A stretch of 64,000 nucleotides of DNA from Planctomycetota bacterium (lineage in GTDB: Bacteria > Planctomycetota > E44-bin39), in contig SOJX01000087.1 of NCBI GenBank assembly GCA_004376375.1, positions 81,238 to 145,237 on the forward strand. Reading direction: 5' to 3'. Of the stretch, positions 1-35,225 are shown in pieces. The position numbers and the translations under genes are program-made. Every line of letters starts with the position of its first letter. Within the stretch, counting starts at the first letter, position 1. Under the pieces are notes generated by a model. It was not told the DNA's origin and made no database searches. It saw nothing but the letters and a program-made list of their open reading frames with translations.

Positions 1-672
1 TTAGGGCTATTCCGGCCAGAATGCCGTGCGGTTTCGTTTCACGAGCTAACCGGAAGATCCATGATTATTGATCTAAGCCAGATTCCTAGCGACGAGATAA
101 AGAATGCACTGGCGCAATTGATCGTAATGTCAGCACATGCCTATTTTAATGCTCTTCCCCAGTCCGGCAGGATTCGCCAACTGTTTGTCATTGATGAGGC
201 ACACCGTGTGTTGGATTACGAATTCATGGCGGACTTCGTACTGCAATGCCGTGCCTATGGTGTTGGTATGATTCTGTCCTCTCAGTATCCAAGCCAATTC
301 CCGCAAGATGTATCGTCATCCATGGCAACCAAGATTCTCCACGGGAACGAGAGGGATAGCAACAGGGTGAAAGACATTGTCAAGCTGATACGTTGCGAGG
401 GGCGTGAAGGAGACGTGGCCAACCTTGATCGATTCCAGGCTTTTGTGGACAACCGTCATTATCCACACACGCTTCTACGCACCATGAACTACCCGCTGTA
501 CCTGGTATGGACCAGGCTCCGAGAGCTTGGGACTGCAACACGGGAAGAACTTTCGGAGGCAGAGGGATTCGATCCTTCCAAGCTGCAGATAGGGAACCTC
601 GTTCGACAATTGGAGCGCTTAGGACTTGCCGAGGAGCGGGAAGGCCGGGTGTTCTTGTTGGAATGCAAGTAA
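1..672 (+). CDS. P-loop NTPase, C-terminal part of a HerA/FtsK/TraG-like (DUF87-type) ATPase; 5' end lies outside the window
   Basis: Frame stays open from nt 1 with no stop before the first Met at 61. Walker-B-like 'LFVIDEAHRV' and a downstream 'RAYGVGMILSSQYPSQ' arginine-finger/sensor-like block typical of HerA/VirB4-type ATPases. C-terminal wHTH-like tail. Confidence 0.5.
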   Translation, partial: LGLFRPECRAVSFHELTGRSMIIDLSQIPSDEIKNALAQLIVMSAHAYFNALPQSGRIRQLFVIDEAHRVLDYEFMADFVLQCRAYGVGMILSSQYPSQFPQDVSSSMATKILHGNERDSNRVKDIVKLIRCEGREGDVANLDRFQAFVDNRHYPHTLLRTMNYPLYLVWTRLRELGTATREELSEAEGFDPSKLQIGNLVRQLERLGLAEEREGRVFLLECK

Positions 673-686
673 GCCGAGGTTAACAC

Positions 687-1541
687 ATGCATCCCTTCGT
701 CCAAGGAGAAAGTTACGACCGTGAGGAAGTACTCCGCTTCCTTGGAAGCAAGCAGAGACAAAGCGGGATCGTCTATGGACGCGACATCCATTCTTACATC
801 GCGATTTTCGCGGGGGGAAGGTCAGGCAAGACTGCCGGGTACGAGGATGGTTGGGGGTCCGATGGTACTTTCCGATACTGCGGGCAGGGTTCGCGTGGTA
901 ACCAGCGGTTAACAGGCCCCAATAAGGTGCTTGCAGAGCATCAAGGTATGATACTACTTTTTGAAACATAGAAGCCTAAACACTCCTGGAAGGGTAGGCA
1001 ACGCTTCCTTGGCGAGTACCACAGAATAGGTTATGAATGGGTAACGGGCAGAGGCTCTCGTCGGGGAGATCGTCTTCTGATGTTCTTGTTTATACCGGTT
1101 GAAAATATGGCAAGCAATAACCGGTTGCTTGTCAGCGCTGGGGAAGAAGTTGATATTGAAACACTCAAGGCCGAAGCAATAGCCGCAGGGCGACCTAGTT
1201 CCTCGACTTATAACACTAGAGCGGAATACCGATCAAGATCTGCATCTGTCGCACATTACGTATTGACGCGGGCAAAAGGAATATGCGAAGCATGTTTTCA
1301 ACCTGCCCCTTTCAATCGACCTGACCGGACCCCTTACCTTGAAGTCCATCATACTCAGCGGCTAGCAGACGAAGGGCCCGATGACATCATGCATGTAACG
1401 GGGATTTGTCCAAATTGCCACAGGGAAGCACACTTCGGTCCAGATACGGATGCGTTTCGGAAACGGTTGGAGAAATTCATTGCCGAGAAGGAAGGTGCTC
1501 TTGATCAAGAAACTCGAGCGGATGATCATCCGGCTTCCTAA
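687..1541 (+). pseudogene. SRA(YDG)-HNH modification-dependent (type IV-like) restriction endonuclease interrupted by one in-frame TAG at 969..971
   Basis: ORFs 687..971 and 1080..1541 are in the same frame, and the frame is open from 972 to 1079. The upstream part has SRA-like blocks ('GYEDGWGSDGTFRYCGQGSRGNQRLTGPNKVL' ... 'GRQRFLGEYHRIGY' ... 'GDRLLMFLFIPVE'), and the alignment continues across the stop. The downstream part has an HNH motif ('CEAC...EVHH...CPNCHREAH'). Confidence 0.55.
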
Positions 1542-2187
1542 ACCTCGGTTAATTCGGCAGTTCAGGGAGAAATTACTTTGTTGGTACGGCAAATACGGCC
1601 GGAAGTTCCCCTGGCGTAGGGCCTCGACCAGTAAGTATCAATACATCATTGCGGAAATACTGCTGCAGAGAACGCGGGCAGAAACTATCGCGGTCTTCTT
1701 CCCGAACTTTGTACGTGAATTTCCGTCGTGGAAGAATCTCGGCTCCGCAAGCGTCGCACGACTTCAACGCTATCTTCAACCAATAGGGCTTTGGCGTCGC
1801 AGGGCTGCATCGGTCAAGGCATTGGCGCGGGAGATGACCAAGAGAAACGGCATATTCCCCAAAAGGCGAGAAGATATCGAAGCGTTGCCTGGTATCGGGC
1901 AGTACATTGCGAACGCCGTGTTGCTCTTTTGCCACGGAACGCCGCAGCCCTTACTTGATGTTAACATGGCCCGTGTATTAGAAAGAGTCTTTGGGCCGAG
2001 AAAACTGGCCGATATACGATATGATCCTTATCTGCAGGAGCTTGCTAAAAAAGTGGTTCAACGCAAGACACCCGCAAAACTCAACTGGGCAATTCTCGAT
2101 CTTGCTAGCACAATTTGCCTGATAAGAAAGCCTCGCTGTAGTGATTGCCCGCTTGCATCAATATGCCTAGAAGCAGTTATCGCCTAA
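1522..2187 (+). CDS. HhH-GPD DNA glycosylase with 4Fe-4S loop; endonuclease III / MutY-catalytic-domain-only, Mig-like
   Basis: 'WYGKYGRKFPWR' MutY-like N-terminus. HhH-GPD block 'LPGIGQYIANAVLLFCHG...DVNMARVLERVFG'. Cys cluster 'CLIRKPRCSDCPLASIC' (Cx6Cx2Cx5C). About 222 aa with no NUDIX-like C-terminal domain. The ATG at 1522 overlaps the HNH ORF end by 20 nt. Confidence 0.7.
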   Translation: MIIRLPKPRLIRQFREKLLCWYGKYGRKFPWRRASTSKYQYIIAEILLQRTRAETIAVFFPNFVREFPSWKNLGSASVARLQRYLQPIGLWRRRAASVKALAREMTKRNGIFPKRREDIEALPGIGQYIANAVLLFCHGTPQPLLDVNMARVLERVFGPRKLADIRYDPYLQELAKKVVQRKTPAKLNWAILDLASTICLIRKPRCSDCPLASICLEAVIA

Positions 2188-2203
2188 TTTAGAAAGGTCT
2201 GAA

Positions 2204-3277
2204 ATGGAAACAATCTTTGGAGATGAATGTGGGTATACTGGCCAAGACCTTCTTCAGCCTGAACAACCTGTATTTGTTGAAGCAACCATAAAAATCTCTG
2301 AAGAGCAGAGCAAGGGATATCACGAAGAATTCTTTAGCAAGATTCAAGCAAAGGAATTAAAACACAAGAAGCTCTCAAAGAGGCCAAAACAGCAAGAGAT
2401 GGTTTTACGGTTTCTTGATTCCATCATTAAGGATTCCGTCCAGATCGATGTATTGATTATGCATAAACCATATGCTCTCCTTGGGAAGTTCGTTGATCTT
2501 GTTGTCGAACCAATAATGAAAATAACTGGCCATGACTTACTTTCAGAGGGAGAAAACCTCGCACTGACTAATTTGTTATGGATGGTTCTGCCCGTATTTA
2601 CCAGTGAGAATTTCTTCAATGAATTCCTGGTTAATTTTCAGAAATTGGTTCGAGAGCGTACTCCTGAGGCCTATGAAGATTTCTTCCGTCCTCTGTTATC
2701 AAGAAAATATCCACGACAACTGGATATTTTGATAACACCAGTTATGCTCTCAAATAGCCTGCTCAATACATCCATACTCTCTGATCTGGAGGATGGCCTA
2801 AAGGTAATGATAACCTGTTATTTCACACTTCTTGCGCGCTGGAACAATAAAGTTGATAAAGATATTACACTTGTGCTTGACCGCTCTTCTGAAGTTGCAC
2901 AGGATTATAAAACTTGGGAAGCATTAATGAATCCCTACAATAAACCCGTCTCTATAGGAACTGGGAATAGAAATACAACTTTCCCGATGAAAGTAAAAGA
3001 AACTTCTTTGGAGGACTCATGTGACTGGTGCGGATTACAGTTGGCTGACATCATTGCTGGTGCCACGACGAGATATGCTCACTGGATATTAAATGGACAA
3101 AATGCCGAAGATGAATATGCGGTTAAACTCGGCGAATTAATCATTAATAACATTATTGAACCAGCATGGAAGCTGTGGCCATCTGACAAAATGACCCCAG
3201 AAGAAATGGGTACTGAAAGGTATAATGGCAATGAGGCGATTGAGCAAATCGGGAAGATAATTGATGACAATGATTAG
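2204..3277 (+). CDS. DUF3800-family protein
   Basis: N-terminal 'IFGDECGYTG' (DUF3800 'DESG'-type start) and C-terminal 'LQLADIIAGA' motif. Confidence 0.6.
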   Translation: METIFGDECGYTGQDLLQPEQPVFVEATIKISEEQSKGYHEEFFSKIQAKELKHKKLSKRPKQQEMVLRFLDSIIKDSVQIDVLIMHKPYALLGKFVDLVVEPIMKITGHDLLSEGENLALTNLLWMVLPVFTSENFFNEFLVNFQKLVRERTPEAYEDFFRPLLSRKYPRQLDILITPVMLSNSLLNTSILSDLEDGLKVMITCYFTLLARWNNKVDKDITLVLDRSSEVAQDYKTWEALMNPYNKPVSIGTGNRNTTFPMKVKETSLEDSCDWCGLQLADIIAGATTRYAHWILNGQNAEDEYAVKLGELIINNIIEPAWKLWPSDKMTPEEMGTERYNGNEAIEQIGKIIDDND

Positions 3278-3408
3278 TGCAAACATAACATAGCCATGTT
3301 TTCAGTAGATTCCAGAGCGTTTTTCTGAACTAGCTGCGTGAAATACTTTGGGGGAGACATAAGTAAACATTATCGGTGCAATGGACGTCCTACCTAATGC
3401 ATTACTCT

Positions 3409-4284
3409 TCAATCAATTTTTCTCCCATCTGTTTCTAGAACGATTTTTTCAAAGCACGCCAGAACGTCAGGGAACTTATCTTTGAGGTATTTCTTGACCT
3501 TCTTGCTGGTAATCAATTTCCCAACGTAGCTGCATGTCTTTAATAGGTCAGTGGAATATCGGTGATACGTAGTAGTGTAGAAATCGTGGCTTTTTTGGGC
3601 TTCTTCCAACTTTGCAACCAGCTCTTTCCCTTTCGTGGGGTCCTGCGTCCAGGGTTTCCTTTTCTTTTTTTCGCCATTGCGCAGACTTTCAGGGGTTTTG
3701 ATTACCAGGGCCCGGGCAAACGACCGGCTGTAATCATTATTTTTCTGCATCTCTCTCAGTATTTGAAGTTGCCGCTTCGGCTTCACATAGGTGAACTCCG
3801 CTGCGCACTTCCGGCTCATAAAATTATCATCCAGTACTTTAATAACTTTCAGATGCAGTTGCTTAATCACAGTGGCCGCGAGCCGATATTTTATAGACCG
3901 CAAGCCAAAGGTCCCAGAAATGGCCGGTTCGGCAACGGTTTTGAGGGCTTTTTGCAGCATTCTATTCTCTTGTACAGCCGAAATCCTACTGACCTTTTTG
4001 TTCCAAGTGTATGTTTCCTTATTTTTCTTATTGCTGAAGACCCGACACGGAACTTTCCTGACGCCGAGTTTTTCAAAAGCCTTAAATCTGAGATAGCCGT
4101 CCAGGATGCTGTACTTCCCGTTTTTTTTATAAACGCAGACAGGTTCGACCAGGCCGACAGCCTTAATGGTGGCCACTATCCTGGCAAATCCCGCGTGAGA
4201 TTTCAGGTTAATGTCTCTTACGCGCAGGGGGACGAGATTCTCTATCGCAATATCTTTTCCCTGTACATTTACAACGTTTGCCAT
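3409..4284 (-). CDS. ParB/Sulfiredoxin-fold (ParB N-terminal nuclease-like) domain protein 1
   Basis: N-terminal 'PLRVRDINL...IKAVGLVEPVCVY...YSILDGYLRFKAFEKLG' matches the ParB-N pattern (G-x-R-R-x-A-like box). Lys-rich C-terminal half. Confidence 0.55.
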   Translation of the reverse strand: MANVVNVQGKDIAIENLVPLRVRDINLKSHAGFARIVATIKAVGLVEPVCVYKKNGKYSILDGYLRFKAFEKLGVRKVPCRVFSNKKNKETYTWNKKVSRISAVQENRMLQKALKTVAEPAISGTFGLRSIKYRLAATVIKQLHLKVIKVLDDNFMSRKCAAEFTYVKPKRQLQILREMQKNNDYSRSFARALVIKTPESLRNGEKKKRKPWTQDPTKGKELVAKLEEAQKSHDFYTTTYHRYSTDLLKTCSYVGKLITSKKVKKYLKDKFPDVLACFEKIVLETDGRKID

Positions 4285-4307
4285 GGGATTCCCTCCTTAG
4301 AAGCAGT

Positions 4308-4706
4308 CTACTTCGGCGACATCCTTCCCCGATTCCGAGTTTTGGGGCCCGCCGCTGGCTTTCGTTTCGCGTCGGCAGACTTGGATGACTTCTTTTTATT
4401 CCTCGGAAGAGTAATAAGTGATTGAAGAAACGAAAGGAACTCCATCTCTTCCCACATGACAAAGCTGGGCGCTTTTACTACTCCCAGATTCCGACATGCG
4501 TTTTCCCATGAAGGGCCGTCGATGATGAGATACCTTCCGTTACCACCGCTGATCATCATTTTCTCGATAAGCCCGATCCTTTTGATTGTCGACATCAGCT
4601 TGTTCAGACGTTCAAGGCCGGGAGAGCTTCCGTTCTTGGGCTTCTGAGACATCAGGAGATTATGCAACGCCAGAACTCTTTCCATGACGGGGTTCTTTTT
4701 AGACAT
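4308..4706 (-). CDS. ParB/Srx-fold domain protein 2 (small, basic C-terminus)
   Basis: 'IKRIGLIEKMMISGGNGRYLIIDGPSWENACRNLG' is ParB-N-like. Its stop overlaps the upstream gene (4699..4706). Confidence 0.45.
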   Translation of the reverse strand: MSKKNPVMERVLALHNLLMSQKPKNGSSPGLERLNKLMSTIKRIGLIEKMMISGGNGRYLIIDGPSWENACRNLGVVKAPSFVMWEEMEFLSFLQSLITLPRNKKKSSKSADAKRKPAAGPKTRNRGRMSPK

Positions 4707-5592
4707 GATACTCTCCTTTCAGTCGGGGGCGCTGGTCGAGCCCTTCGACTTTTAACAAGGCAACCAGTTTTTTGTCCTTCCAAATAGTATTGATTCCATC
4801 CAGGAGAGTGAGCAGGCGATTCACCTTTATGTTTGCCTCATGGTTGAATGACCTTTTCTCCTTGGTAATCTTGGAAATATCTGCCTTCAAGTTTTTGACC
4901 GAATAATTTTTCAGACGCGAGCGCCCTCTTCTATTTCCTGTCTGCTTTCCGCGTTTGATTCTGGTTTCTATAATCTTCCGGACCGAACTGGTATTATTGC
5001 TGCTGATAATGCCTGTATCGAAAGCGTCCATAAGAACATTCTGGATGGTGGAATTATCCGACCTTGCCACCAACATGGCAAAGGTTATGGGGAACAACCC
5101 CTGTTCCACTCCTTTTATCAACCTCGCTTCGCCCTGTTCCACCAGACGGATATAGTCCCGGATGTACGATTCGCATTTGCCGACGATTTTGCTAATCTCA
5201 GCGTATGACCAGCCTTCATCGTGTACCCGTTTGATTTCGTATGCAAACCACATCGTCCCGGGCGGTACGCGAGCGATGTTTTCAACCAGGGAATAAAGCA
5301 GCGCCTCCTTTTTACTACAGCTTCTGATCTCCGCAGGAATATGTGAGTACCCGAGCTCTTTGAAAGCGAGATAACGCCCCTGGCCACAGATCAATTCGTA
5401 ATGACCTGTTCTCTTGAAATTTCGCGTACTTACAAGGATGGGCTTTAGCAAGCCTACTTCCTTGATGCTCCGGATGATTTCCTGAAATTTAGTCTTGCCT
5501 CTGTTCCGAGGGTTCAACACCTTGATCTTGTCAACCGGTATATCCTCGTATTTGCGTTCTGTCATTGGCATTATCTTAATCGTTTTCATAGT
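4699..5592 (-). CDS. ParB-like nuclease domain protein 3
   Basis: 'IKEVGLLKPILVS...YELICGQGRYLAFKELG...LVENIAR' (ParB GERRxRA-like box and ENxxR box). Start chosen at 'MKTIKIMPMTERKYEDIPVDKIKV'. Follows the recombinase directly on the minus strand. Confidence 0.55.
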   Translation of the reverse strand, partial: TMKTIKIMPMTERKYEDIPVDKIKVLNPRNRGKTKFQEIIRSIKEVGLLKPILVSTRNFKRTGHYELICGQGRYLAFKELGYSHIPAEIRSCSKKEALLYSLVENIARVPPGTMWFAYEIKRVHDEGWSYAEISKIVGKCESYIRDYIRLVEQGEARLIKGVEQGLFPITFAMLVARSDNSTIQNVLMDAFDTGIISSNNTSSVRKIIETRIKRGKQTGNRRGRSRLKNYSVKNLKADISKITKEKRSFNHEANIKVNRLLTLLDGINTIWKDKKLVALLKVEGLDQRPRLKGEYHV

Positions 5593-5600
5593 ATGACCTC

Positions 5601-7091
5601 CTAGTCCAAAAGGGCCGCAATCATATCCAAGTTGCGGCACCCGTAGAGTTCGAGTCTGCTGTCACTCGAACTGAAGAGCTTGATGTTGCGGCTGTCTACG
5701 AGCATCCTGGGAAAAGTCAGATAACCTAGAATATCGTGTTTCCCGCTATTGGACAGGGGAACCCCAAGGGTGATATCCACTTCTTTTCTGGAATCCGGCA
5801 GGAACGACCAATAGGTGGTATATCCGTGAAAGACAGGCACCGACGGTTGAATGAGAAGGCTGAAACTGTCATTCAGGACAACGTAATCGTCAATCTCTTC
5901 AACTTGCCTGGCCAACGTTCTGAGCTGATCGACAACTGATTGCCTGGCCCGATCCCGAACATCTTTGTAGATATTCTGAAATGCCATGTCCAGTGACAGA
6001 AAATGCTTTGTGTAAGTTGCTGGAGACACCATCTTCTTGTCTGCAGCAACCTGACGTGGGCCGGCTTTGCCATATCGTTTATATAGTTTCGCAAGCCTCG
6101 CGAGCATGTCCTCGGCTGAATACCTGCGTTCGTGCTCTGCATTCATGGCTTCGATTCTTTCTTGAGCCTGAGTGAACAAAGCCTTATTGATGATCCCCTT
6201 GAATGCATTTTCTTGGCGAACCCACTCTTCTCTGGGGTTCTGCTTGGTGCCAGATTGCAGCTTTTGCCGTGTCTTATTGTAAACCATTGTTCCGATGTAG
6301 AATTCATTGGTCAAAATCGCCTGAATCGCACTGCTCGTCCACTTTTTACCACCGGGAGAAAGAATACTTCCGTCATTAAGAGAAGCCGCAATTTCTTTCG
6401 GGGCACAGCGTTTTTTAACAAAGGAGTTAAATATTTTCCTGACGACAGATGTTTCTTTTCTATCACCCGGAGCCAAAGTAACCCTTTGGTTTTGGATGCT
6501 TTTTCTTTGTCCCGGTTTCAGAATCTGAACGGGGTTGCGTTTTTCATCCAGGAGAAGCCTATGAAGACCATACGGTGGCGGAGCACCCGCCCGGAACCCC
6601 TGCTCGGCAATCTTCACACATCCCTTGAATACTTTGACGCTGAGTTCGCGGCTGTAATTGCCGGCCATAAATCGTTCAATATTCAGGTGCAGGAAACCTA
6701 AGAGGTCATCTTCTTCACGGAAGCCCATTGTCGTATAGACAACTTGTTTTCCGTAATTCAGACACATCGCCGCATAATACGCCGCAATGTCCGGATTCTG
6801 GAATCGCCCCCATCGGGTAGCATCAAGCACCAGGACATAATCGAAGTCCTCCTTGCCCTCAATCACATACTCGATCATTTCAAGGAAGGCATCTCTGCCC
6901 TTGGTTGACAGACCAGATTTTCCCGGCTCTTCAAATTCTTTGATAATCTCAATACGATTATCATCAGCGAACTTTCCTATCCGCTCCCGTTGAATAGGAA
7001 TGGAGTTTTCCTGCCGGTCTTGTGCAGAGTGGCGATAATAAGTTATCGCTTTTTTCCCACCCGGGGCTTTCTTTTGTTTTTTCCACCACAT
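5601..7091 (-). CDS. large serine recombinase (resolvase/invertase catalytic domain plus recombinase and zinc-ribbon region)
   Basis: N-terminal 'AITYYRHSAQDRQENSIPIQRERI...DYVLVLDATRWGR', resolvase-like with a Ser nucleophile context. About 500 aa with a long recombinase-domain tail. Start placed at 'MWWKKQKK'. Confidence 0.75.
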   Translation of the reverse strand: MWWKKQKKAPGGKKAITYYRHSAQDRQENSIPIQRERIGKFADDNRIEIIKEFEEPGKSGLSTKGRDAFLEMIEYVIEGKEDFDYVLVLDATRWGRFQNPDIAAYYAAMCLNYGKQVVYTTMGFREEDDLLGFLHLNIERFMAGNYSRELSVKVFKGCVKIAEQGFRAGAPPPYGLHRLLLDEKRNPVQILKPGQRKSIQNQRVTLAPGDRKETSVVRKIFNSFVKKRCAPKEIAASLNDGSILSPGGKKWTSSAIQAILTNEFYIGTMVYNKTRQKLQSGTKQNPREEWVRQENAFKGIINKALFTQAQERIEAMNAEHERRYSAEDMLARLAKLYKRYGKAGPRQVAADKKMVSPATYTKHFLSLDMAFQNIYKDVRDRARQSVVDQLRTLARQVEEIDDYVVLNDSFSLLIQPSVPVFHGYTTYWSFLPDSRKEVDITLGVPLSNSGKHDILGYLTFPRMLVDSRNIKLFSSSDSRLELYGCRNLDMIAALLD

Positions 7092-7345
7092 ATTATTACT
7101 TTCTGCGGAACTCGCGGATCGCGTTACTGAGAAGCACGGACGCATTGCCGAGCTCTTCCTTTGCAGCACGGCCAAGGAAAAAAGCCGATCCCCCCATTAA
7201 GAAAGGGGAATTATAGGCACTTTTAATGAATTTTTTTCAAAATATTTTTCAGCCTATATCTAGTGGCTTACGCTATCCAAGGCTACAACATGTAGAATTT
7301 TGCCGCTGGTGTGGGTTATGAATATTAATTAATGAGTCACGATTT

Positions 7346-7852
7346 TCAACTGGCCGAGCTAATCTTATGAGAAATCCTACTGGCAAACTCCTGTAAGAGA
7401 TTAGTTGCCTTTCTACGTGTAATTGCCTGATCGAGCAACGTGCCAACAACCCGAATCAGTTCTGCTTCATCGGAAGGCTCCTGCGATTGCTGGGATAGAA
7501 TGAGCAATTTTTTCCTGATTTTCTTTAACGCGCCGCCTACTTTTTTTCCTCGCCTTTTTTTGCCGATTAAATGTTGATTGACCGCTGGTTGGGAAATGTT
7601 CAATTTCTCAGCGATTTCGGACTGGGTGTGGCCGCGGAAACGAAGGATGAGGGCCTGTTGCTGCTTGTATGTCAAATCATTGAGAATGATCCTGTTTAAT
7701 AACGGTATAAACAGCGATAAGATTTCATTTTTTTTCAGCCGGTCTTTTCTTTCGTGATTATAACTGTACCACCGACCGGAGGTCTCGGGTATATTTTGCC
7801 AATGTCTTACATCAAGGTGAGCATTTCCAAAAAAATTCTCCCCGTTTTTCAT
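7346..7852 (-). CDS. small sigma-70 region-4-like / HTH DNA-binding regulator
   Basis: 'LTYKQQQALILRFRGHTQSEIAEKLNISQPAVNQHL' HTH followed by a basic tail. Confidence 0.45.
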   Translation of the reverse strand: MKNGENFFGNAHLDVRHWQNIPETSGRWYSYNHERKDRLKKNEILSLFIPLLNRIILNDLTYKQQQALILRFRGHTQSEIAEKLNISQPAVNQHLIGKKRRGKKVGGALKKIRKKLLILSQQSQEPSDEAELIRVVGTLLDQAITRRKATNLLQEFASRISHKISSAS

Positions 7853-8616
7853 TTTTGTCCCCCGGATCGAATGAAATTTGAAGTGATATTCCGGGGGGCG
7901 AGTTCTGAAAAGAGAAGAGCGAGATTGCGCTGTTCTGTTAAAGACGTAGCGTGGGCAAGGAGGCCTTGTTATCTACTTCCTGGGCAACGAGATTACCACA
8001 TTTTACGGGGTCGTTTCCCATACTTGTTTTAGGCCGAGTAGGAGGCCCGCAGCGTTCTTCAAGCGTTCGGTGCATGGGTCCAATGATGACATATGCTCAT
8101 ATAGACAAAAAATATCTTTGAGATCTTTCGTGCGTATCCTCGATAAGGTTTCGCGGATGTCATTAATGCGCGCGCAGCAGCTTTCGGATTCACACTGATG
8201 TGTGGCTCCTTGCTCTTTCTCCACCATTAAGTTCATTGGTTTCCGCTGTGTCGTTATTGCATTCATTATTTCCCTCCTTCCTGGAGTTAAAAAAATAAGG
8301 GAGCGCCAACACCAAGGTCACTCCCGGCCGACGGGCCTACCAGGGCCCATGCACCGACAGCAAACTCTTGGGCGGCGCTCCCGCAAAATGCGGAAGCACC
8401 ATCGCCAAGCTTTGCCATCCTGGTGCAAATATGGAATCTGGTAGTTTGTCGGCCAGGACACAATGCCTTTGATGAACTTAACGCTTAATTATGCTTATAT
8501 CATTATCCTCCATTATCTGGACTCTAAAAGCGTTTATTACCATAAACAATAGCTCTTATTGGAGTACTGTCAAGCCTCTTTCCTTTATAAAGGGCATAAC
8601 CATTAATGCCGGTTGA

Positions 8617-9318
8617 TCACAAAAAAAGATTTTTCAACTTCAGATTATCTTCGACAAGTTCTTTGGGAGTGCCTTCGAATGAGACCTTACCCAATTTGAG
8701 AGAATACACTCTATGGCAGATTTCAAGCACTTTACGCACTTTTTGTTCCACAATCAAAATGGTTACCCCTGTTTTGATGTTTATATCAACTATTTTATTG
8801 AATATTGAATTGACGAGTTTCGGTGATAACCCCAGAGAAGGTTCATCAAGCATAAGAATCTTAGGATTAGGGACAAGGGCTCTGGCCAATGACAGCATTT
8901 GCTGTTCCCCCCCAGACAGTTTTCCGGCATATTGCCGAATACGTTCCTTTAACAATGGGAACATCTCAAATATTTGAGTTAAACGGTTGGCAAATTCCCT
9001 TCGAGAAAGCTGGAATCCAGCAATTTCTAAATTCTCCATAACGGTCATATCACCAAAAACTCTACTAGCTTGAGGGGCAAGCGTAATTCCTTTTGCGACT
9101 TTTTGTGCTGTTGTATAATTATTAATAATATTATCATTAAAAATTATCTCGCCTCTCCAAACGGGTAGAAGGCTGCAGGCTGCTTTTAGTGCTGTCGACT
9201 TGCCTGCTCCGTTAGGTCCGATTAAAGCAACAATTTCACCTTCACGGATTTCTAAGGTCAACCCGAATAGTATCTGCTTTTCGCCGTAACCTGTCTCAAG
9301 TTTTTTGATTTTCAGCAT
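8617..9318 (-). CDS. livF: branched-chain amino acid ABC transporter ATP-binding protein LivF
   Basis: Walker A 'GPNGAGKST', ABC signature 'LSGGEQQML', Walker B 'ILMLDEP'. Operon position after livG. Confidence 0.85.
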   Translation of the reverse strand: MLKIKKLETGYGEKQILFGLTLEIREGEIVALIGPNGAGKSTALKAACSLLPVWRGEIIFNDNIINNYTTAQKVAKGITLAPQASRVFGDMTVMENLEIAGFQLSRREFANRLTQIFEMFPLLKERIRQYAGKLSGGEQQMLSLARALVPNPKILMLDEPSLGLSPKLVNSIFNKIVDINIKTGVTILIVEQKVRKVLEICHRVYSLKLGKVSFEGTPKELVEDNLKLKNLFL

Positions 9319-9327
9319 TACGATTTC

Positions 9328-10086
9328 TCAGCCTGTGTATGCTTCGATAACTTTAGCATCATTCCTGACTTCACCAGGCGTGCCTTCACAAATCTTGGTT
9401 CCCGCATCCATGAAAATAATTCGATCACATATTTGCATAACGACATCTAGGTTATGCTCAATCAGGATAACTGATTTCTTCTTTTGAGGTAGATCACGAA
9501 TAATTCCAAGGATATTATCAATCATTTCAGGTGCTATCCCAGCTACCGGTTCATCAAGTAGCACAAGATCTCCCTTAGCTGCGAGGCAACAGACAAGGCT
9601 TAACAATTTCTGTTGACCATAAGATAGGTTTTCTGCTTGGTCATTTGCTTTCTCTGCAAGGCCAGCCTCGGCCAGAAGTATAAGTGCTTCATTTCGAATG
9701 GCGGCTTCTTGCTTTTTGCTTTGCTTCCATCTAAAGAAAAGGTTTGCTAAGTGCTCTCCCGGTTGGTTCTCGAATGATAATAGGACATTTTCAAGTACAC
9801 TTAATTGCCGAATAAGCCGGAGATCTTGAAATGTCCTGGCGATTCCAGCACGGGCAATTTTATGCGGAGACATCCTGACAATACTCATTCCTTTAAAAGT
9901 AATATTTCCGCGCTCAGGAGTCGTAAATCCGCTAATGATGTTAAGGAGGGTTGTCTTACCTGCCCCGTTGGGACCGATGAGCCCAAGTATTTGGCCCTGT
10001 GAAAGCGAGCATGAAAAATCCGCAAGAGCTCTAATGCCATCAAAGTTTTTTTCGAGTCCTTGGATTATTAGTAATTCTTCACTCAT
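9328..10086 (-). CDS. livG: branched-chain amino acid ABC transporter ATP-binding protein LivG
   Basis: 'GLIGPNGAGKTT', 'LSYGQQKLL', 'LVLLDEPVAG'. 4-nt overlap with livM. Confidence 0.85.
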   Translation of the reverse strand: MSEELLIIQGLEKNFDGIRALADFSCSLSQGQILGLIGPNGAGKTTLLNIISGFTTPERGNITFKGMSIVRMSPHKIARAGIARTFQDLRLIRQLSVLENVLLSFENQPGEHLANLFFRWKQSKKQEAAIRNEALILLAEAGLAEKANDQAENLSYGQQKLLSLVCCLAAKGDLVLLDEPVAGIAPEMIDNILGIIRDLPQKKKSVILIEHNLDVVMQICDRIIFMDAGTKICEGTPGEVRNDAKVIEAYTG

Positions 10087-10970
10087 TTCCTCGCCTCCCT
10101 ATTCTGGAAAGCGTATTTGCCTAAAAATCCACGTGGTCGCCATATCATAAACGTTACTAGAAGTCCGCCATAAAGAATTTGCCGGAGATTTGCCGCAATT
10201 GAATTGGGCAATCCAACAAAACGAAGTATCTCTGGCAATGTAACAAGGACAAGCGCACCGATAACCGGCCCCCAGGTACTTCCCGCTCCTCCAATTATTA
10301 CAATACATATGATAAATATAGATTCCATCACAGTAAAACTGGTCGGATTGATGTAGCTTACATAATAGGCATACAAAGAACCTGCAAGCGCTGCTATGCC
10401 AGCTCCTAATGTAAATATCAGGATTTTAAAAGTTTCTACACTTTTACCTTTGGATTGCGTAAAAATTTCATCCTCTCGAATTGCCTTTAACACTCGTCCA
10501 AATGGCGAATTGCCAATACGGTGTCCTCCCCAAATAATAATGGCACAAATTCCGCCAACAATAAGGAGAAATCCAATACTTGATGTGACTCTCCATCCCA
10601 AAATAACCGGTTGGGGAATTCCCGGAATACCGTCTGGACCTCCTGTGAATCCTACCCAATTGTTTAATATGCTGAAAGTTATGACTTGGAACGCAAATGT
10701 GGCAATGACAAAATAATCACCCTTGATTCGAAGTGTTGAAACTCCAATTAAGATTCCGAAAAACATTGAAAAGATTATTGAGCATAGTACGGTAACCCCA
10801 AAGGCACAGTTTAATTTAATGGCCATGATTGCGGCAACATATGCTCCAATACCGTAAAATGCAGCATGAGCCATTGAAAGCAGGCCTGTATATCCTACAA
10901 CCATGTTTAGGGATACGGACAGAATAATATAGATGCCGATAAGTATTAATAAATGAAATACGTATTCCAT
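10083..10970 (-). CDS. livM: branched-chain amino acid ABC transporter permease LivM
   Basis: Polytopic membrane protein in liv operon order. Confidence 0.75.
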   Translation of the reverse strand: MEYVFHLLILIGIYIILSVSLNMVVGYTGLLSMAHAAFYGIGAYVAAIMAIKLNCAFGVTVLCSIIFSMFFGILIGVSTLRIKGDYFVIATFAFQVITFSILNNWVGFTGGPDGIPGIPQPVILGWRVTSSIGFLLIVGGICAIIIWGGHRIGNSPFGRVLKAIREDEIFTQSKGKSVETFKILIFTLGAGIAALAGSLYAYYVSYINPTSFTVMESIFIICIVIIGGAGSTWGPVIGALVLVTLPEILRFVGLPNSIAANLRQILYGGLLVTFMIWRPRGFLGKYAFQNREARK

Positions 10971-10982
10971 CCAATCCCCAGG

Positions 10983-11861
10983 TTAAATCGTCGCCTTTTT
11001 TGTGTTTTTTCCTAGAATTCCTTGTGGCTTCACAATCAGGAATCCCAGCAGAATACCAAAAGCGATTGCATCCTGCCATTCAGCTCCGAACTTCCATATA
11101 CCAAGTTGCTGTGCTAATCCCAGTAGTAAACCACCAAGAACAATTCCGGAGACATTAGCCAAGCCGCCTATAATGGCTACTACGAGTCCCATCATGAGCG
11201 CTGTCAGCCCCATTGTAGGTGTCATTCCTACATCAAAAGATAATAAAATACCGGCCAAGCCACAAATTGCCGAACCTATCGCGAAAGCCCATATAATTAT
11301 TCTACTGCTTTCGATACCTGAAATTGCAGCAAGTTCTGGATCACTTGATACTGCTCGAATCGCTTTTCCAGTTCTTGTTATTTTTAGAAACAACACCAAC
11401 AAGAGCAATAAAATGATAGTAGTGCAAATGGTAAGTCCCTGGATAAAGGTTATTCTTGCCCCAAATAGATTAAATCCTTCCGTGATTAAATTACTTCTGA
11501 TAATCTTTGTGTCGTCTCCAAATGCTATAGATATAATATTTTGCAATACGATATAAATTCCAAGAGAAACAAGTAGCATTACAAGGGGTGGGGTAGATTT
11601 GGCCCTGAGCGAACGATAAATCGTTAATTCTATTAAGCATCCTAATAGTGCTGATGCAAATATTGCGGTTGGCACGGCAATAAGAAATGGAAAGCTTAAT
11701 TCCATTCGAAGGAAGAATACAAAATATGCTCCTGCTGTGAAAATAACTGCATGTGTAAAATGGAAAAACCGGACAACACGAAATATTATTGTGAAGCTAA
11801 CAGCGATTAGGATATATATGCTTGCCGATATGAAAGCATTCAGGATAAGTTGGGTAAGCAT
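10983..11861 (-). CDS. livH: branched-chain amino acid ABC transporter permease LivH
   Basis: Polytopic membrane permease with LivH-like spacing of hydrophobic segments. Confidence 0.75.
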   Translation of the reverse strand: MLTQLILNAFISASIYILIAVSFTIIFRVVRFFHFTHAVIFTAGAYFVFFLRMELSFPFLIAVPTAIFASALLGCLIELTIYRSLRAKSTPPLVMLLVSLGIYIVLQNIISIAFGDDTKIIRSNLITEGFNLFGARITFIQGLTICTTIILLLLLVLFLKITRTGKAIRAVSSDPELAAISGIESSRIIIWAFAIGSAICGLAGILLSFDVGMTPTMGLTALMMGLVVAIIGGLANVSGIVLGGLLLGLAQQLGIWKFGAEWQDAIAFGILLGFLIVKPQGILGKNTKKATI

Positions 11862-13450
11862 ATTCGCCCCGGTCGTGAGGTTTCGTCTTTATTTGGCTTA
11901 ATTGTATGGTTATTCCAATGACCAATTACTCGGTAAAGCGGATGTAAAAAGCGAGGAACTGTTTCCCACAGCGCTTCCTGGCATTCAGCCTCAAGCTCTC
12001 CAACTTCTTCCGATGAAAGCACATTCTCCCTCCCAGGCAAATAGGGTACTGACATTGACCAGCCTGAAGCCTTATTGGGAACTGGTGTAACGCCGGGGAC
12101 TTTAGTTCCTCGATCTAATCGAAAAGCAACTAAATCAGCAGTGTCAACTAGTGGTTCGTGTTCGATAAGAAATTCTACAGTGTTCTCAGCATCTTTACGT
12201 GAAGTCCCTGGATAACCAACCATACAGAAAAGGTGTACCATAATTCCGGCATCATAGCAGGCTTTAAGAATACGTAGGGGATTTCCATTATCGCATTTAC
12301 CTAATAAGTTACGATTTGCGCTCGGTGCCTGCTCCAGCCCGAAATAGAGCTTCCGTAACCCACAAGAATGTAATTCTTCAAGAAACGATAACTTTTCCCA
12401 GTTTGGTTCCAGGCGTGCATATGCCTCCCATTCAATGTCCAGATGTGACTTGCTCAGCGATTTGCATAAACTGTCTGCTTTACTAGGCATAAGTGCTTCA
12501 TCAACGAATTTGATCCTTTGTATGGAAGTATCTCTGACAATTTGTGTAAGTTGAGATACTACAAATTCAGCAGGAGCAGAACCTCCATAGCCATTTGGGG
12601 ACCATCCGGCAGGTATTGCGCAAAAATGACACTTGCCCCAATAACAACCTCGCGTGGAGGCATATGGAATAACAGGTATGCCAATATATTTATTGAAATC
12701 TATTCCATCAAATGATGGGATGGGCCAGTTTTCATAAGGGATTAATTCATCACCACTTTCGTTAGATAAAACTGAGCGAGCTTTTTTCACACCAAACTTA
12801 TTCACAGCATTTACAGCTTTGGCAAAAGCCATTTCACCTTGAAAAGATACTATTTGGTCAACTAACCCGGATATGGTGGAAAAAGCTAATGAGTTTCTTA
12901 TACGAGTAACAACGTTACCTCCAAGCAATAAAATGCAGCCTGGTAAGCATTCCCGCACTTTTGTTAGAAGCTCAATTGCTGGAATAATCTGTTGCTCAGA
13001 TGCGATTGTAACCCCAATTATTGATGGTGCCACATCAACCAGTTGCGGGAGAACAATTTCATCAAACATATCTGAAAATACTGTTCCATTTTCCAAGGCA
13101 CGCACAATCTCGTTGGGAGGCAATGAATAGTAATCAGAGAAGCAATATCCTGATAATAAGCGGAATTCGGAATTATTACCCAAAGAACTTCCAACATTTT
13201 TTAACTCATCTTCCCATTTGAAGTATAACTCGTCTAGAGCTTCATAATTATTTTGCGATGAAGCTTCGATGATTCTATCGTTCTTTGGAGGCGATGAATA
13301 CGTCTGGTAGAACAATTGATTTAAATCCCAAGCCTCAACCGGGCAGCTTATGCTGCTTACAGATCCTGCTAGCAAAGGTAAAGCAAGATGAGGCCCAGGA
13401 GTGCAAAAACTCCAATTAGGAGGAAATAGTAGTATCGCCTTATTACGCAT
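11840..13450 (-). CDS. B12-binding-domain radical SAM / Fe-S oxidoreductase family protein
   Basis: N-terminal 'AILLFPPNW' B12-rSAM-like start. Cys cluster 'ASTRGCYWGKCHFCAIP'. Embedded between livK and livH, with a 22-nt overlap on livH. Confidence 0.55.
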   Translation of the reverse strand: MRNKAILLFPPNWSFCTPGPHLALPLLAGSVSSISCPVEAWDLNQLFYQTYSSPPKNDRIIEASSQNNYEALDELYFKWEDELKNVGSSLGNNSEFRLLSGYCFSDYYSLPPNEIVRALENGTVFSDMFDEIVLPQLVDVAPSIIGVTIASEQQIIPAIELLTKVRECLPGCILLLGGNVVTRIRNSLAFSTISGLVDQIVSFQGEMAFAKAVNAVNKFGVKKARSVLSNESGDELIPYENWPIPSFDGIDFNKYIGIPVIPYASTRGCYWGKCHFCAIPAGWSPNGYGGSAPAEFVVSQLTQIVRDTSIQRIKFVDEALMPSKADSLCKSLSKSHLDIEWEAYARLEPNWEKLSFLEELHSCGLRKLYFGLEQAPSANRNLLGKCDNGNPLRILKACYDAGIMVHLFCMVGYPGTSRKDAENTVEFLIEHEPLVDTADLVAFRLDRGTKVPGVTPVPNKASGWSMSVPYLPGRENVLSSEEVGELEAECQEALWETVPRFLHPLYRVIGHWNNHTIKPNKDETSRPGRICLPNLS

Positions 13451-13451
13451 A

Positions 13452-14744
13452 TTATTCTTCTCTACATATACAAAAATCCGGTTTCCCAGTCGTCCAAGCT
13501 TCTTTCACAAGAGGAAGTAGGCCAGGAGGATCCCCTTCTTCTTTAAGTTCATATTCCGGCAGAAAACGCATGCCGTTAACATCACGGCTTTCGTCATCAA
13601 TAAAAACCATGCCAAATCCAGATGTTTCTGAAAGCCTTACAATGAAAATATCATCGTAGTGGCGCAATCTTTCTGGTAGAGAATCAAGGTAGCGGATAAA
13701 AACACCGCCGTCTCCAGGGCTTGGGTCTTCAGAATGATCATGAAATGATTCATGAAAATGATCAATAAGTCGAGTGCCCTGTGTTTTATCCATGTCCTCG
13801 TCTGCATATTTACCAATTAAATAGATATGCGGTTGAAGTTCTTTGGGCAAAGATTGATAATTAAATGTAGAATTAATTATATGGTGTATATCAGGGTGCC
13901 ATTCAATATAATCGTATTGCTCCGCTAGCTCTTTAGCCTTTGGTATTGTTAAGGCATTAGTATCAAATAAAAAATAATCTTTGGCATCCTCAATAGTGGT
14001 TTGAGATAAAATATGAGCAACCAAGCGATAAAGCTTTATTGGTTCTTCCGCCCCCTTCATTTCTCTAATGGTGCTCTTGTAATTTTCCCACCATGGAAAA
14101 GTAATGTTACCTGAATAGGTATTTCCATTATCAATCCAATCCACAGGGAATGGTATGTACCAGTTCCAGATGGGCCTTTTTAGAATAGTCCAGACTTGGG
14201 GGTAAGGCTTCTCGCAATTAAGCTCTCTTATCAAATCTAAAACCGATGAGACCGAATGCGCATATCCCTGAAAATTACAAAATATCACCGGGAATTCTTT
14301 TCTTCCTTGTTCACAATGTAATTCAATTACGTTTTTATCCATTAAGCCCTGGATTGCAGCGGCTGTTAATTTGTTCCATTGCCATCGATTAGGGCTAAAA
14401 AATTTTCCTGGGCGTGCCACTTTTATGGCGCGGTTTAGATGATTAGAAAACTCATGTTGTCCCTCATGACGCGCCGTACGTACTTTTGGATGCAAAGGCA
14501 GTCGCTGAAGTAGCTGAGCTAATATCCATAGAACGAGATATACAGCCAATGCCGATATAAATAAAAAAAAGACCGCTCCCACAAGGGTTTTTAAATCCAA
14601 CAACTTTCCCCAAAAACCAACACCCAAGTCGCGGTACTCTTTAAACTCATCATAAAAAAATACGATAGCGCCCATTACAGTAATAAAACCGCTCACAATT
14701 TGTATGCGGTATGCCTTGATAAAATCTTTGAAATTTTTGCCCAT
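13452..14744 (-). CDS. hypothetical membrane-anchored protein (two N-terminal TM helices)
   Basis: Long intact ORF, tightly packed 2 nt from the rSAM gene. No motif recognised. Confidence 0.4.
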   Translation of the reverse strand: MGKNFKDFIKAYRIQIVSGFITVMGAIVFFYDEFKEYRDLGVGFWGKLLDLKTLVGAVFFLFISALAVYLVLWILAQLLQRLPLHPKVRTARHEGQHEFSNHLNRAIKVARPGKFFSPNRWQWNKLTAAAIQGLMDKNVIELHCEQGRKEFPVIFCNFQGYAHSVSSVLDLIRELNCEKPYPQVWTILKRPIWNWYIPFPVDWIDNGNTYSGNITFPWWENYKSTIREMKGAEEPIKLYRLVAHILSQTTIEDAKDYFLFDTNALTIPKAKELAEQYDYIEWHPDIHHIINSTFNYQSLPKELQPHIYLIGKYADEDMDKTQGTRLIDHFHESFHDHSEDPSPGDGGVFIRYLDSLPERLRHYDDIFIVRLSETSGFGMVFIDDESRDVNGMRFLPEYELKEEGDPPGLLPLVKEAWTTGKPDFCICREE

Positions 14745-14996
14745 TAATTATACCTGAAGGCTATTCAACTCAGTAATGCAAACTTAGAGTTCACGAGCCG
14801 CCTCAGGACGGCGCTTTGTCTTTTGGAATGGGCCAGTTGGTTTTATTCTGGCGAGGATATTTCCATTATGGTTAGAAGCTATATCATTGCTCTCGGGCGC
14901 CTTAATTTCCAAATGGTGCTTTTTTGATATGTTAGAACGTGCTCGCAAGAGTGCCGACCGCTTGGTCATTCAAGTTCTCCTGATTATGTTATGGTC

Positions 14997-16145: not shown

Positions 16146-17199
16146 ATCACATCTCCTTCCGCAAAGGAACTTTTCGTCTGTGCTGGTAGATATTTTCTTT
16201 GGATGAAGTGAAATATGGTGAGAAATCACCCATATTTCTCTCCATACTATTCTGGATAAAAGCCTCTACCACAAGCAAAGTTGGGCTAACCCCAAGCCAT
16301 ACAAAATTATATAAAATATGATATAAAGATGGTATGACCTTGTCAACTTATTTTCGGATAAGAAATTATACCCATTCAAGGTATTAACCATGGATTCTGG
16401 TTGGATTCCTTTTTGCACTAAACGCACAGAGGTCAAAGGCGAAAATTGCACGATATTGTTAATGAGAAAAGTTGAAAACCCGTGCATGAAACGCGAATCG
16501 TTCAATAAAGAACGTTGGCATCAAACGAGTTAGCATGCGTTATTCAATAGGGAAAGGTTTTGACGGGGTATATTCAAAAAGAAAAGTGCTTCTGAGTGGA
16601 GGCATTGACAGGCAATAAAACCGGGAATTTACGCTAACTCTATGCGCACCTTGGCTTCCAGCGTTCTAGCTTGACAACGATTTCGACGGGTGCTATATTT
16701 CCTTTTGATTGTGGCGAGTCGCCCCGACCCGATTGGACGGACAGCCCTTCGGCAAGAATGTCGAAGGGCTTTCTGTATTCAGGAACTACACTTACGCCAT
16801 CGAAGGTTAAGTTCAAACAGGTTGTTTGGAGTAACTGGCGTTTTTTGTGCGGATTAAACGTAACGAACCTTTCTGGAAGCGTTTGCGAAAGTTCAAACGC
16901 TTTCAGGCCTGTGTTGATGTGCTTGGCAAAATTCTTCTCGTGGGATTGCATACTGGCGGCACCTCTGCGAATGCTGAAACACCTGTCTTGGCGGGCTCAA
17001 TGAGAGCAGAACGCCACGCTGGAAGCGTGTCTACTACTTAAAGGGTAGTTTATGTCCAACAATTTTAGGGAACTCTGCTACGAGGGGGTTTTTTGCTTTG
17101 GACCGCGACCACGGAGAGTTTTATTCTCTTCTGAGGGGTCGACATAGCCGCCTTTATTCTGGGACTTCCCTGAAGGTTGCTGAAATGTATAATGAAAAG

Positions 17200-23947: not shown

Positions 23948-24030
23948 AGAGCAGGAGAACAGTAGAGAGGAGAAAGTAGAGCAAAGAAAAAGACATTAAA
24001 AGGAGAACGGTATCCGAATCGGCAATAAAC
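23948..24030 (+). repeat. approximately 82-bp direct repeat, copy 1 (upstream of the GH130/GT4 cluster)
   Basis: Near-identical to 31009..31090 ('agagcaggagaacagtagagaggagaaagtagagcaaagaaaaagacattaaaaggagaacggtatccgaatcggcaataa'). Confidence 0.65.
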
Positions 24031-24162
24031 CACATCCGGATTCATATTTTTTCCACGATCTTTCTGCCGCTTTCTGAAACCTTTTCAATACGGAAACTCC
24101 TTTGAATAGAAAGGCATTCATTGAATTATATCTTTGACCCGGTTCCCGAGTAGTGATATCTT

Positions 24163-25152: not shown

Positions 25153-25209
25153 ATCAGTAAATCAGTAATAACTGAATAACTGGATAACTGAATAACTGGA
25201 TAACTGAAT

Positions 25210-30979: not shown

Positions 30980-31008
30980 AATCCCCGCCTGCGGTATTTT
31001 ATTTGGGC

Positions 31009-35211: not shown

Positions 35212-35225
35212 TAACAGAATATGCA

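Follow-up and report, generated by a model that had tools for sequence, protein, structure and literature searches.

A conserved methyltransferase-F-G-H-glycosylase operon, probably a 5-methylcytosine-based restriction-modification system on DndFGH-type machinery, in a prophage-like element of Planctomycetota

The first 3277 nucleotides (nt) of a 64,000-nt stretch of DNA from a Planctomycetota bacterium (contig SOJX01000087.1, positions 81,238 to 145,237 of the forward strand; this whole stretch is called the window below) hold four close-packed plus-strand reading frames; two of the junctions are gaps, of 14 and 16 nt, and the remaining one is an overlap. The initial annotation described them as four co-directional, tightly spaced genes, which the frames and their junctions bear out, and assigned them to a HerA/FtsK-like ATPase, an SRA-HNH nuclease, a DNA glycosylase and a DUF3800 protein. 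It suggested that the four might form a composite anti-phage module aimed at modified DNA, or else that the glycosylase might be a deamination-repair partner of a 5-methylcytosine (5mC) system. The question that the locus raises is whether these genes belong together and, if they do not, of which system each of them is a part.

The domain labels given to the four genes (ATPase, SRA, HNH, HhH-GPD and DUF3800) all survive testing, but the unit that they were taken to form does not. The ATPase and glycosylase genes are the end of a longer operon that starts outside the window, in which a cytosine methyltransferase gene, three genes that we call F, G and H, and the glycosylase gene follow one another. 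We consider that this conserved unit is probably a 5mC-based restriction-modification system that uses DndFGH-type machinery and is carried by a prophage, with the SRA-HNH gene as an optional component and the DUF3800 gene as a passenger. The features at the start of the window are as follows.

1..672, plus strand: 3′ end (223 codons and the stop) of H, which encodes a DptH/DndH-like protein; the rest lies to the left of the window (L014 10001-15550)
687..1541, plus strand: SRA-HNH type IV-like nuclease gene, apparently inactivated; same-frame open reading frames (ORFs) of 94 amino acids (aa) (687-971) and 153 aa (1080-1541)
969..971, plus strand: in-frame TAG in place of the Trp of FETWKP, a putative TGG to TAG nonsense mutation
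1522..2187, plus strand: Mig.MthI-like HhH-GPD/[4Fe-4S] glycosylase, 221 aa, recognized by Pfam, NCBIfam and PADLOC; in-frame starts also at TTG 1501 and ATG 1450
2204..3277, plus strand: DUF3800 protein, 357 aa (Pfam PF12686, 25.4 bits with a cut-off of 21)

Gene H and the operon to which it belongs

The first frame ends at nt 672 and is already open at nt 1, as expected from the proposal that the 5′ end of the ATPase gene lies outside the window. We extended the locus leftward by means of the DUF3800 protein, which led to the parent JGI contig Ga0247413_1234937 (120 kb), and by means of a cluster member of H, which gave 7 kb more upstream. This extension, which the initial annotation had recommended, recovered the full ATPase gene, encoding a protein of 1849 aa on the same contig, with a methyltransferase gene, F and G upstream of it. 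The NCBI copy of H (TET34897.1, from a Planctomycetota metagenome-assembled genome, or MAG) is 1858 aa long. The upstream genes lie on the same strand, tightly packed in front of H, and encode a C5 cytosine methyltransferase of 456 aa, an F protein of 677 aa and a G protein of 530 aa. The methyltransferase gene and F overlap by 1 nt, F and G overlap by 8 nt, and a gap of 10 nt separates G from H. The methyltransferase gene starts the operon about 8.5 kb left of the window, and motifs I, IV (PCQ), VI (ENV), VIII and X of its product are intact. Scans for promoters and terminators over nt 1-3600 gave results at chance level.

The part of H inside the window includes VIDEAH, which is the Walker B motif of a HerA/FtsK ATPase, as well as ILSSQ with the sensor Gln and the winged-helix-like C-terminal tail of that ATPase. 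This fragment matches the PADLOC models for mad8 (2e-10) and HerA (7e-8) and also those for DndH, which cover only the last ~300 residues of H; the ATPase domain of the full protein matches mad8 at 1e-19. A profile made from 14 H proteins finds the C-terminal domain of DptH (PDB 7es4) at 1e-23, and together these matches confirm the HerA/FtsK-like call. We also compared H with canonical DptH, using three annotated dptFGH loci taken from plasmids as the comparison set. In hhalign, the two proteins align with a probability of 99.9% and an E-value of 1e-36 over H residues 1023-1750 (662 columns). This span takes in the ATPase and a PD-(D/E)XK motif (PVD...DLLAV...ESK), which is aligned to the D...EVK of DptH. 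As a point of annotation, "HerA-like ATPase" names one domain of what is predicted to be a giant nuclease-motor protein. The H family comprises at least 156 clusters, which are 49-77% identical over their full length. Its conservation profile includes a disordered linker at about residues 1360-1460 and no clear hypervariable target-recognition segment, and Pfam searches with the 14 H proteins (E up to 1) gave no match in the N-terminal 1400 residues.

The similarities of F and G to known proteins are weaker. In F, a Cys-rich insert comes after a Walker A P-loop; the protein aligns weakly with DptF in hhalign (probability 32%, E 5e-4) and matches the PADLOC models of SspF at up to 3e-8 over ~110 residues. 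G aligns weakly with DptG (probability 30%, E 6e-4), and only in its C-terminal ~70 residues. Weak as they are, the matches to DptF/SspF and DptG are colinear with that of H to DptH, and they suggest that F-G-H is a distant DptFGH-like module that lies outside the curated family. We use the label "distant DptFGH-like" because the curated models are silent on these proteins and because the first ~1000 residues of H match nothing.

We then asked how the operon is composed in other organisms. Our sample of loci comprises 12 distinct systems, found with the SRA-HNH protein, H and the 677-aa F as baits; five of the 12 came from the SRA-HNH bait. A scan of genome contigs with an alignment of F and two peptide patterns gave four loci, and a scan of viral contigs gave one truncated locus. 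Ten independent loci, which represent at least six phyla, share the colinear order methyltransferase, F, G, H, glycosylase, and a serine recombinase gene usually stands beside it. F, G and H are adjacent in that order on the window contig and in 10 other loci. Within the main sub-type, the 5′ side can be seen in 11 loci, and in all of them a C5 methyltransferase gene (PF00145) precedes F; a gene for a short HhH-GPD glycosylase follows H in all 10 loci whose 3′ side is visible. Among the hosts are Dehalococcoides mccartyi and MAGs of Deltaproteobacteria, Ca. Saccharicenans, Nitrospiraceae, Clostridia and Planctomycetota, and there are several metagenome contigs in addition. In the MAG of Clostridia, the contig ends inside H, and the visible part reads methyltransferase, F, G, H. 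No dndABCDE or sspABCD phosphorothioate modification genes were found within 10 kb in any locus. The survey of neighbourhoods proposed in the initial annotation thus gives a different answer for each gene: the ATPase and glycosylase genes are linked elsewhere as well, the SRA-HNH gene is optional and the DUF3800 gene occurs beside the system nowhere else.

Three of the loci illustrate how the operon varies. The closest relative (L020), whose H is 77% identical, has the same backbone of two ParB genes and a recombinase gene, and lacks both the SRA-HNH and the DUF3800 genes. A divergent variant (L016 1-11555) consists of genes for a methyltransferase, F' (691 aa), G' (510 aa), H' (1719 aa), an SRA-HNH protein and a glycosylase. 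Its methyltransferase, SRA-HNH protein and glycosylase are ~50% identical to the window versions, whereas F and G are just ~23% identical, and the ATPase at the end of its H' is of the AAA+/RuvB-like and not of the HerA/FtsK kind. Finally, L027 (10982-20703, minus strand; 10001-10882) represents a third sub-type of F-G-H, with proteins of 710, 512 and 1823 aa. Other defence-type genes are also found beside the system in relatives (L020 21654-25583 and L021 1-3200), namely AbiEi/AbiEii and a ubiquitin-like set of Prok-E2, ThiF and JAB genes.

These observations lead us to a tentative mechanism for the operon. The methyltransferase would place 5mC at target sites in host and prophage DNA as a self mark, and F-G-H, with its HerA/FtsK motor and the H nuclease, would translocate on DNA and nick or cut unmarked DNA, on the model of DndFGH and phosphorothioate. 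The glycosylase would excise T (or U) from T:G mismatches that result from deamination of the system's own 5mC, in a role like that of Vsr for Dcm. Where the SRA-HNH protein is present, it might act as a second nuclease against phages whose modified cytosines let them escape ordinary restriction.

Several points weigh against this interpretation. The sample of loci is small, and part of it was retrieved through the SRA-HNH bait. The similarities of F and G to DptF and DptG fall below the usual level of significance, and the curated NCBIfam models of DptF, DptG and DptH do not match F, G or H (E up to 0.01). In the N-terminal ~1000 residues of H, there is no detectable similarity to DptH (no hhalign alignment begins before ~1020) or to any Pfam family. 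Moreover, several operons hold both an intact C5 methyltransferase gene and an intact SRA-HNH gene; this needs explanation, for example by specificity for sequence context or for the type of modification. Lastly, we infer the link between F-G-H activity and methylation state by analogy, and such a coupling cannot be assumed from homology, because DndFGH has been argued to be modification-independent (PMC10853773).

This last point leads to an alternative, in which F-G-H would be a stand-alone, modification-independent system and the methyltransferase and glycosylase would serve a separate prophage function, such as self-protection against host restriction. In its favour, the element is a prophage, and orphan methyltransferases are common in phages. 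Glycosylases of this family also occur after C5 methyltransferases in unrelated restriction-modification contexts on plasmids, and the most extensive comparative study describes DndFGH itself as "lacking an inbuilt modification module" and as often decoupled from DndABCDE (PMC10853773). However, F-G-H always lies between the methyltransferase gene and the gene of its repair partner; all of these genes point the same way, and their frames abut or overlap. This sandwich order is seen in every locus with both flanks visible, across at least six phyla, and it extends to the divergent L016 variant. Because the interleaved order is kept, two unrelated functions would not be expected, and we regard this alternative as unlikely. 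A restriction-modification system in which all five genes take part is, in our judgement, the probable explanation.

The glycosylase gene

The third gene of the cassette was initially likened to the catalytic domain of MutY or to Mig, and its sequence matches both. The protein has an HhH-GPD domain, an HhH motif and an FeS loop, and its length equals that of the MutY catalytic domain. Among PDB structures, it matches the catalytic domain of MutY at 4e-32 and Mig.MthI (1kea) at 1e-26, the latter over residues 12-213 of 221. Its start overlaps the stop of the HNH frame by 20 nt, as was noted initially, provided that ATG 1522 is the true start; different gene callers pick the alternatives TTG 1501 and ATG 1450.

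The two candidates are distinguished by the residues of the base-binding pocket. Residues that set the thymine glycosylase Mig.MthI apart from MutY, and the role of Mig.MthI in repairing deaminated 5mC, have been described previously (PMC2714593). At these positions, the proteins read as follows.

MutY L22: F in the window protein, F27 in Mig.MthI
MutY Q42: R in the window protein, R47 in Mig.MthI
MutY V45: A in the window protein, A50 in Mig.MthI
MutY S120: Y in the window protein, Y126 in Mig.MthI
MutY Q182: W in the window protein, L187 in Mig.MthI

The pocket is therefore that of Mig and not that of MutY: four of the five residues are identical to those of Mig.MthI, and the fifth, the W, is hydrophobic. 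We aligned E. coli MutY with 12 alignable homologues that are linked to the operon or to a methyltransferase. In the A, Y and W (MutY positions 45, 120 and 182), the 12 homologues are invariant, while the F and R (positions 22 and 42) were read for the window protein. All 12 also retain both catalytic residues, Glu37 and Asp138, and three of the FeS cysteines; the fourth cysteine, Cys199, is His in L008. The window glycosylase has no MutY C-terminal domain. On the pocket residues and the missing domain, we reject an identity with MutY, and "MutY-like" as an annotation of this gene should not be read as MutY.

Genomic context also bears on the function of the glycosylase. The same family is found on an Alisedimentitalea plasmid, where genes for a methyltransferase, an MvaI/BcnI-type endonuclease and the glycosylase stand together, and after a C5 methyltransferase gene on a Thermus plasmid. 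In the L027 sub-type, a gene for Vsr (PF03852) follows F-G-H in place of the HhH-GPD glycosylase gene, so that one T:G repair gene has been swapped for another that is not homologous to it; an SRA-HNH gene is convergently adjacent. Given the Mig-type pocket, the linkage to a C5 methyltransferase and this swap, the best-supported role of the glycosylase is in repair of T:G or U:G mismatches as the partner of the operon's C5 methyltransferase. Of the two proposals made initially, that of a deamination-repair partner of a 5mC system is accordingly the one that the comparison of loci favours. The presence of a Mig-like glycosylase and of Vsr in the same slot would also suggest that a mobile defence operon is under selection to compensate for the mutations that 5mC causes.

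It might instead be supposed that the glycosylase takes part in restriction, excising bases at unmethylated target sites. Restriction enzymes that act by base excision do exist (PMC10273834 and PMC4357717). The best PADLOC model for the window glycosylase is filed under type II as a "nicking endonuclease", and the gene is the last of a defence operon. Yet the known restriction glycosylases belong to a different fold family, and the thymine pocket of Mig, the displacement by Vsr in L027 and the presence in H of a PD-(D/E)XK nuclease all speak against a restriction function, which we consider extremely unlikely.

The SRA-HNH and DUF3800 genes and the element that carries them

The second gene was initially described as encoding an SRA-HNH nuclease. 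Both domain assignments hold, but the gene is not intact. The HNH half matches Pfam HNH at 1.7e-6 and EcoKMcrA (6ghc) at 5e-15, so that its closest match is the HNH domain of E. coli McrA. The SRA half is less readily recognized. Local Pfam and NCBIfam scans found no SRA family in the window gene, and the alignment of its N-terminal half with the SRA segment of ScoMcrA is weak (E about 0.02-0.07), but precomputed Pfam data assign the window's 94-aa ORF to SRA_ScoMcrA (PF26348), and this family is found together with HNH across the SRA-HNH clade. We also searched with an AlphaFold model of an intact homologue with 60% identity (P0005; mean predicted local distance difference test score, or pLDDT, 89.6). 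Its best Foldseek matches are, in order, ScoMcrA, TagI, the SBD-SRA fragment of ScoMcrA and EcoKMcrA, and these are followed by the SRA domains of KRYPTONITE, SUVH, UHRF1, MspJI and AbaSI. The initial annotation had named assignment of this segment to an unrelated fold as a reason to doubt it; the Pfam family, the ScoMcrA alignment and the fold search of the homologue uphold an SRA fold.

The frame is interrupted by TAG at 969-971. This codon aligns with a Trp that is invariant in close homologues, and the change from TGG to TAG is a single transition. It is present identically in the JGI contig and in an independent Logan assembly. The gene has about a thousand relatives, of which the closest two dozen are uninterrupted, 270-300 aa long and 47-69% identical over ~95% of the readthrough product. 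Aside from the TAG, the frame is undamaged, with the catalytic His/Asn/His and both CxxC pairs kept, and because all else is intact, the lesion looks recent. We thus read the gene as a fresh nonsense pseudogene, and the "McrA-like" gene of this locus is best annotated as such. With the gene dead, the issue of how an SRA-HNH nuclease would tolerate the operon's own 5mC is moot in this genome.

This reading presupposes that TAG is a stop codon here. Some phages recode stop codons, and if this TAG were read through or recoded, the SRA-HNH protein could be full-length and functional, as the otherwise undamaged frame with its intact HNH and zinc-binding residues might suggest. However, TAG terminates 15 of the 50 long ORFs of the window, including that of the adjacent DUF3800 gene, there are no tRNA genes in the window, and the homologues have Trp (TGG), one transition away. 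A functional readthrough product is thus scarcely credible, and we rejected both TAG recoding and pyrrolysine on the TAG-terminated ORFs and the lack of a tRNA gene in the window.

Two further observations concern damage to this accessory gene. The G-to-A change at 969-971 is a C-to-T change on the opposite strand (CCA to CTA), which is the type of change made by deamination of 5mC, and it arose in an operon with a 5mC writer and a T:G glycosylase. In another locus (L017 9782-10600), the SRA-HNH gene is an intact ORF, which the gene caller had cut down to 199 aa, but the HNH motif EVHH reads EAHR. The His that is replaced is invariant in an alignment of 91 sequences, and its loss may be a second route to inactivating the same gene.

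The fourth gene is a member of the DUF3800 family, as was first proposed: in addition to its Pfam score, the protein matches PHROG 12991 end to end at 1e-45. It has the family's motifs, with DE (DECGYTG) near the N terminus and QxxD (LQLADIIAG) near the C terminus. An AlphaFold model (pLDDT 77) gives weak matches of which the top 14 are all RNase HII/HIII, so that an RNase H-like fold is probable. Its membership in a module with the other genes is not borne out, for a DUF3800 gene stands beside the system in none of the 11 other loci with a visible 3′ side, and its GC content is 40%, compared with 50-57% for the six operon genes. Distant homologues are found in phages of the size of P2, and one homologue stands by itself amid genes of restriction type (Mrr, UvrD, Z1 and DUF4420). 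The DUF3800 gene is separate single-gene cargo with no conserved link to the operon, and it may plausibly serve defence or exclusion independently.

We can now return to the proposal that the NTPase, the SRA-HNH protein, the glycosylase and the DUF3800 protein are one composite module against phage DNA modified with 5mC or 5-hydroxymethylcytosine. The proposal draws on the tight, co-directional spacing of the four genes, on the overlap between the SRA-HNH stop and the glycosylase start, which recurs wherever an SRA-HNH gene is present, and on the fact that SRA-HNH enzymes are known modification-dependent nucleases (PMC4333417 and PMC6212794). The SRA-HNH gene lies between H and the glycosylase gene in four systems, but it is missing from all six operons that were retrieved without the SRA-HNH bait, and in the window it is apparently a pseudogene. 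In addition, the DUF3800 gene is linked to the system nowhere else, the operon opens with a 5mC writer, and the glycosylase is exchangeable with Vsr. The neighbourhood data thus largely refute a composite module, which we consider very improbable.

The operon and its passengers lie on a mobile element. A tail fibre gene and a Tail_P2_I (P2-type baseplate) gene lie upstream of the operon, and the following features lie downstream of the DUF3800 gene.

3409-4284 and 4699-5640, minus strand: ParB/RepB-like genes (Pfam ParB_N and RepB; PHROG ParB-like)
4308-4706, minus strand: 132-aa ORF between the ParB-like genes
5601..7175, minus strand: large serine recombinase, the integrase of the element (Pfam Resolvase and Recombinase; PHROG 95 integrase, 5e-49)
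7346..7852, minus strand: protein with a sigma-70 region-4 helix-turn-helix, the last gene of the element (Pfam, PHROG and gene order)

Host ABC-transporter genes begin at 8617. Since tail genes lie on one side and ParB and serine recombinase genes on the other, we place the operon at the end of an integrated prophage-like element, with the serine recombinase gene at its other boundary; this location on a mobile element agrees with the initial reading of the cassette as defence cargo.

The remainder of the window offers some observations that do not involve the operon. The flanking "host" DNA is compositionally mixed, with a GC content of ~40-47% over 1-17000 (the prophage end, ABC-transporter genes and radical-SAM genes) and of 55-60% at 24000-44000. 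A low-GC island at ~44000-50000 (38-44% GC, with strong positive GC and AT skew) contains a gene for a type IIG-like fused restriction/N6-adenine methyltransferase of 984 aa (45838-48792, plus strand; Eco57I at 1e-27, MmeI_Mtase, N6_Mtase and HSDR_N), which is a second, unrelated restriction-modification system in the window. At 63879-63924 on the minus strand, there is a full-length match to the Rfam Acido-Lenti-1 small RNA, which scores 59.5 bits against a gathering score of 37.

Comparison with known systems

The passengers of the operon each have counterparts elsewhere. A DUF3800 protein is the effector of type VII retrons, where it has a model that resembles RNase H2 (PMC7736814). The DE and QxxD motifs are common to the window protein and to the DUF3800 effectors of type VII retrons and of some CRISPR-associated loci. 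The window gene differs from these in that it stands alone, with neither a reverse transcriptase nor a CRISPR partner. The SRA-HNH protein resembles TagI, ScoA3IV/Sco5333 and ScoMcrA in that a ββα-Me HNH domain, which has two CxxC pairs, comes after an SRA fold. It lacks the sulfur-binding (winged helix-turn-helix) domain of ScoMcrA and, unlike all of these enzymes, it is encoded within a 5mC-writing operon, while the window copy has a premature stop. For SRA-HNH proteins encoded near BREX and Dnd loci, Rakesh, Aravind and Krishnan have proposed an auxiliary role against phages with modified cytosine (PMC12839542), which is similar to the role that we suggest here.

Like Mig.MthI, the glycosylase is 221 aa long and has an HhH-GPD/FeS fold, and the F, R, A and Y of the pocket are common to both. 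The gene of Mig.MthI, on the Methanothermobacter plasmid pFV1, adjoins a C5 methyltransferase gene, as does that of the operon glycosylase in its own setting. Two differences should be mentioned. The operon glycosylases have an invariant Trp at the position of Mig L187 and MutY Q182, and the partner restriction component is a DptFGH-like machine rather than a type II endonuclease. Dcm and Vsr are a functional parallel, the more so as Vsr fills the glycosylase slot in L027.

Among defence systems, MADS (methylation-associated defence system), which has a set of mad1-mad8 genes, might seem to be a candidate for the operon as a whole, because the mad8 model matches the HerA/FtsK domain of H and because both systems involve a methyltransferase. 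However, none of the other PADLOC mad models matches F, G or the methyltransferase. Only the ATPase of H is shared and the gene architecture differs, and so we reject membership in MADS.

The closest relationship is to DndFGH, DptFGH and SspFGH, the restriction modules of phosphorothioate systems, which likewise consist of three genes in the same order and of similar sizes, with a giant H of about 1700 aa. DptH and the operon's H have in common a PD-(D/E)XK nuclease followed by a HerA/FtsK ATPase. Rakesh, Aravind and Krishnan divide DndH into eight domains, which end in a restriction-type nuclease and a repeatedly "captured" HerA/FtsK ATPase and which begin with an inactive SWI2/SNF2 lobe, β-sandwiches, a target-recognition domain and an inactive adenine methyltransferase (PMC10853773). 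The exchange of the HerA/FtsK ATPase for an AAA+ ATPase in L016 echoes the "ATPase capture" of that description. In the same module, DndF is described as a P-loop kinase with an enlarged lid and DndG as a triple winged-helix protein. The similarity is confined: no likeness to the counterparts can be recognized over the initial ~1000 residues of H or over most of F and G.

The dependence of DndFGH on any DNA mark is disputed, and the present clade would be a case in which the mark is an ordinary and easily assayed base methylation. One could go further and propose that DndFGH-type machines are not tied to phosphorothioate, and that this is a widespread, mobile clade with an operon-encoded 5mC self mark and built-in T:G repair; where it is present, the SRA-HNH protein would then be no conventional type IV enzyme but would read the system's own mark at the cognate sites and serve as a second nuclease, gating or complementing F-G-H. 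In this extended form, we regard the proposal as quite doubtful.

We did not find a DptFGH system linked to a C5 methyltransferase among the PADLOC 2.0 models or in the searchable literature, although coverage of the literature was partial and absence from it is not proof; nor does the text of PMC10853773 attach a glycosylase, Vsr or methyltransferase to FGH. The families involved are known singly, but a DptFGH-like machine that shares its operon with a C5 methyltransferase, a dedicated T:G repair enzyme and, optionally, an SRA-HNH nuclease appears to be a new combination. Unlike dnd and ssp systems, the operon has a C5 methyltransferase gene upstream of F-G-H and a gene for a T:G repair enzyme, Mig-like or Vsr, downstream of it, so that what seem to be distant relatives of DptFGH are interleaved, gene for gene, with a cytosine methyltransferase and a candidate repairer of that enzyme's mutagenic side-effect.

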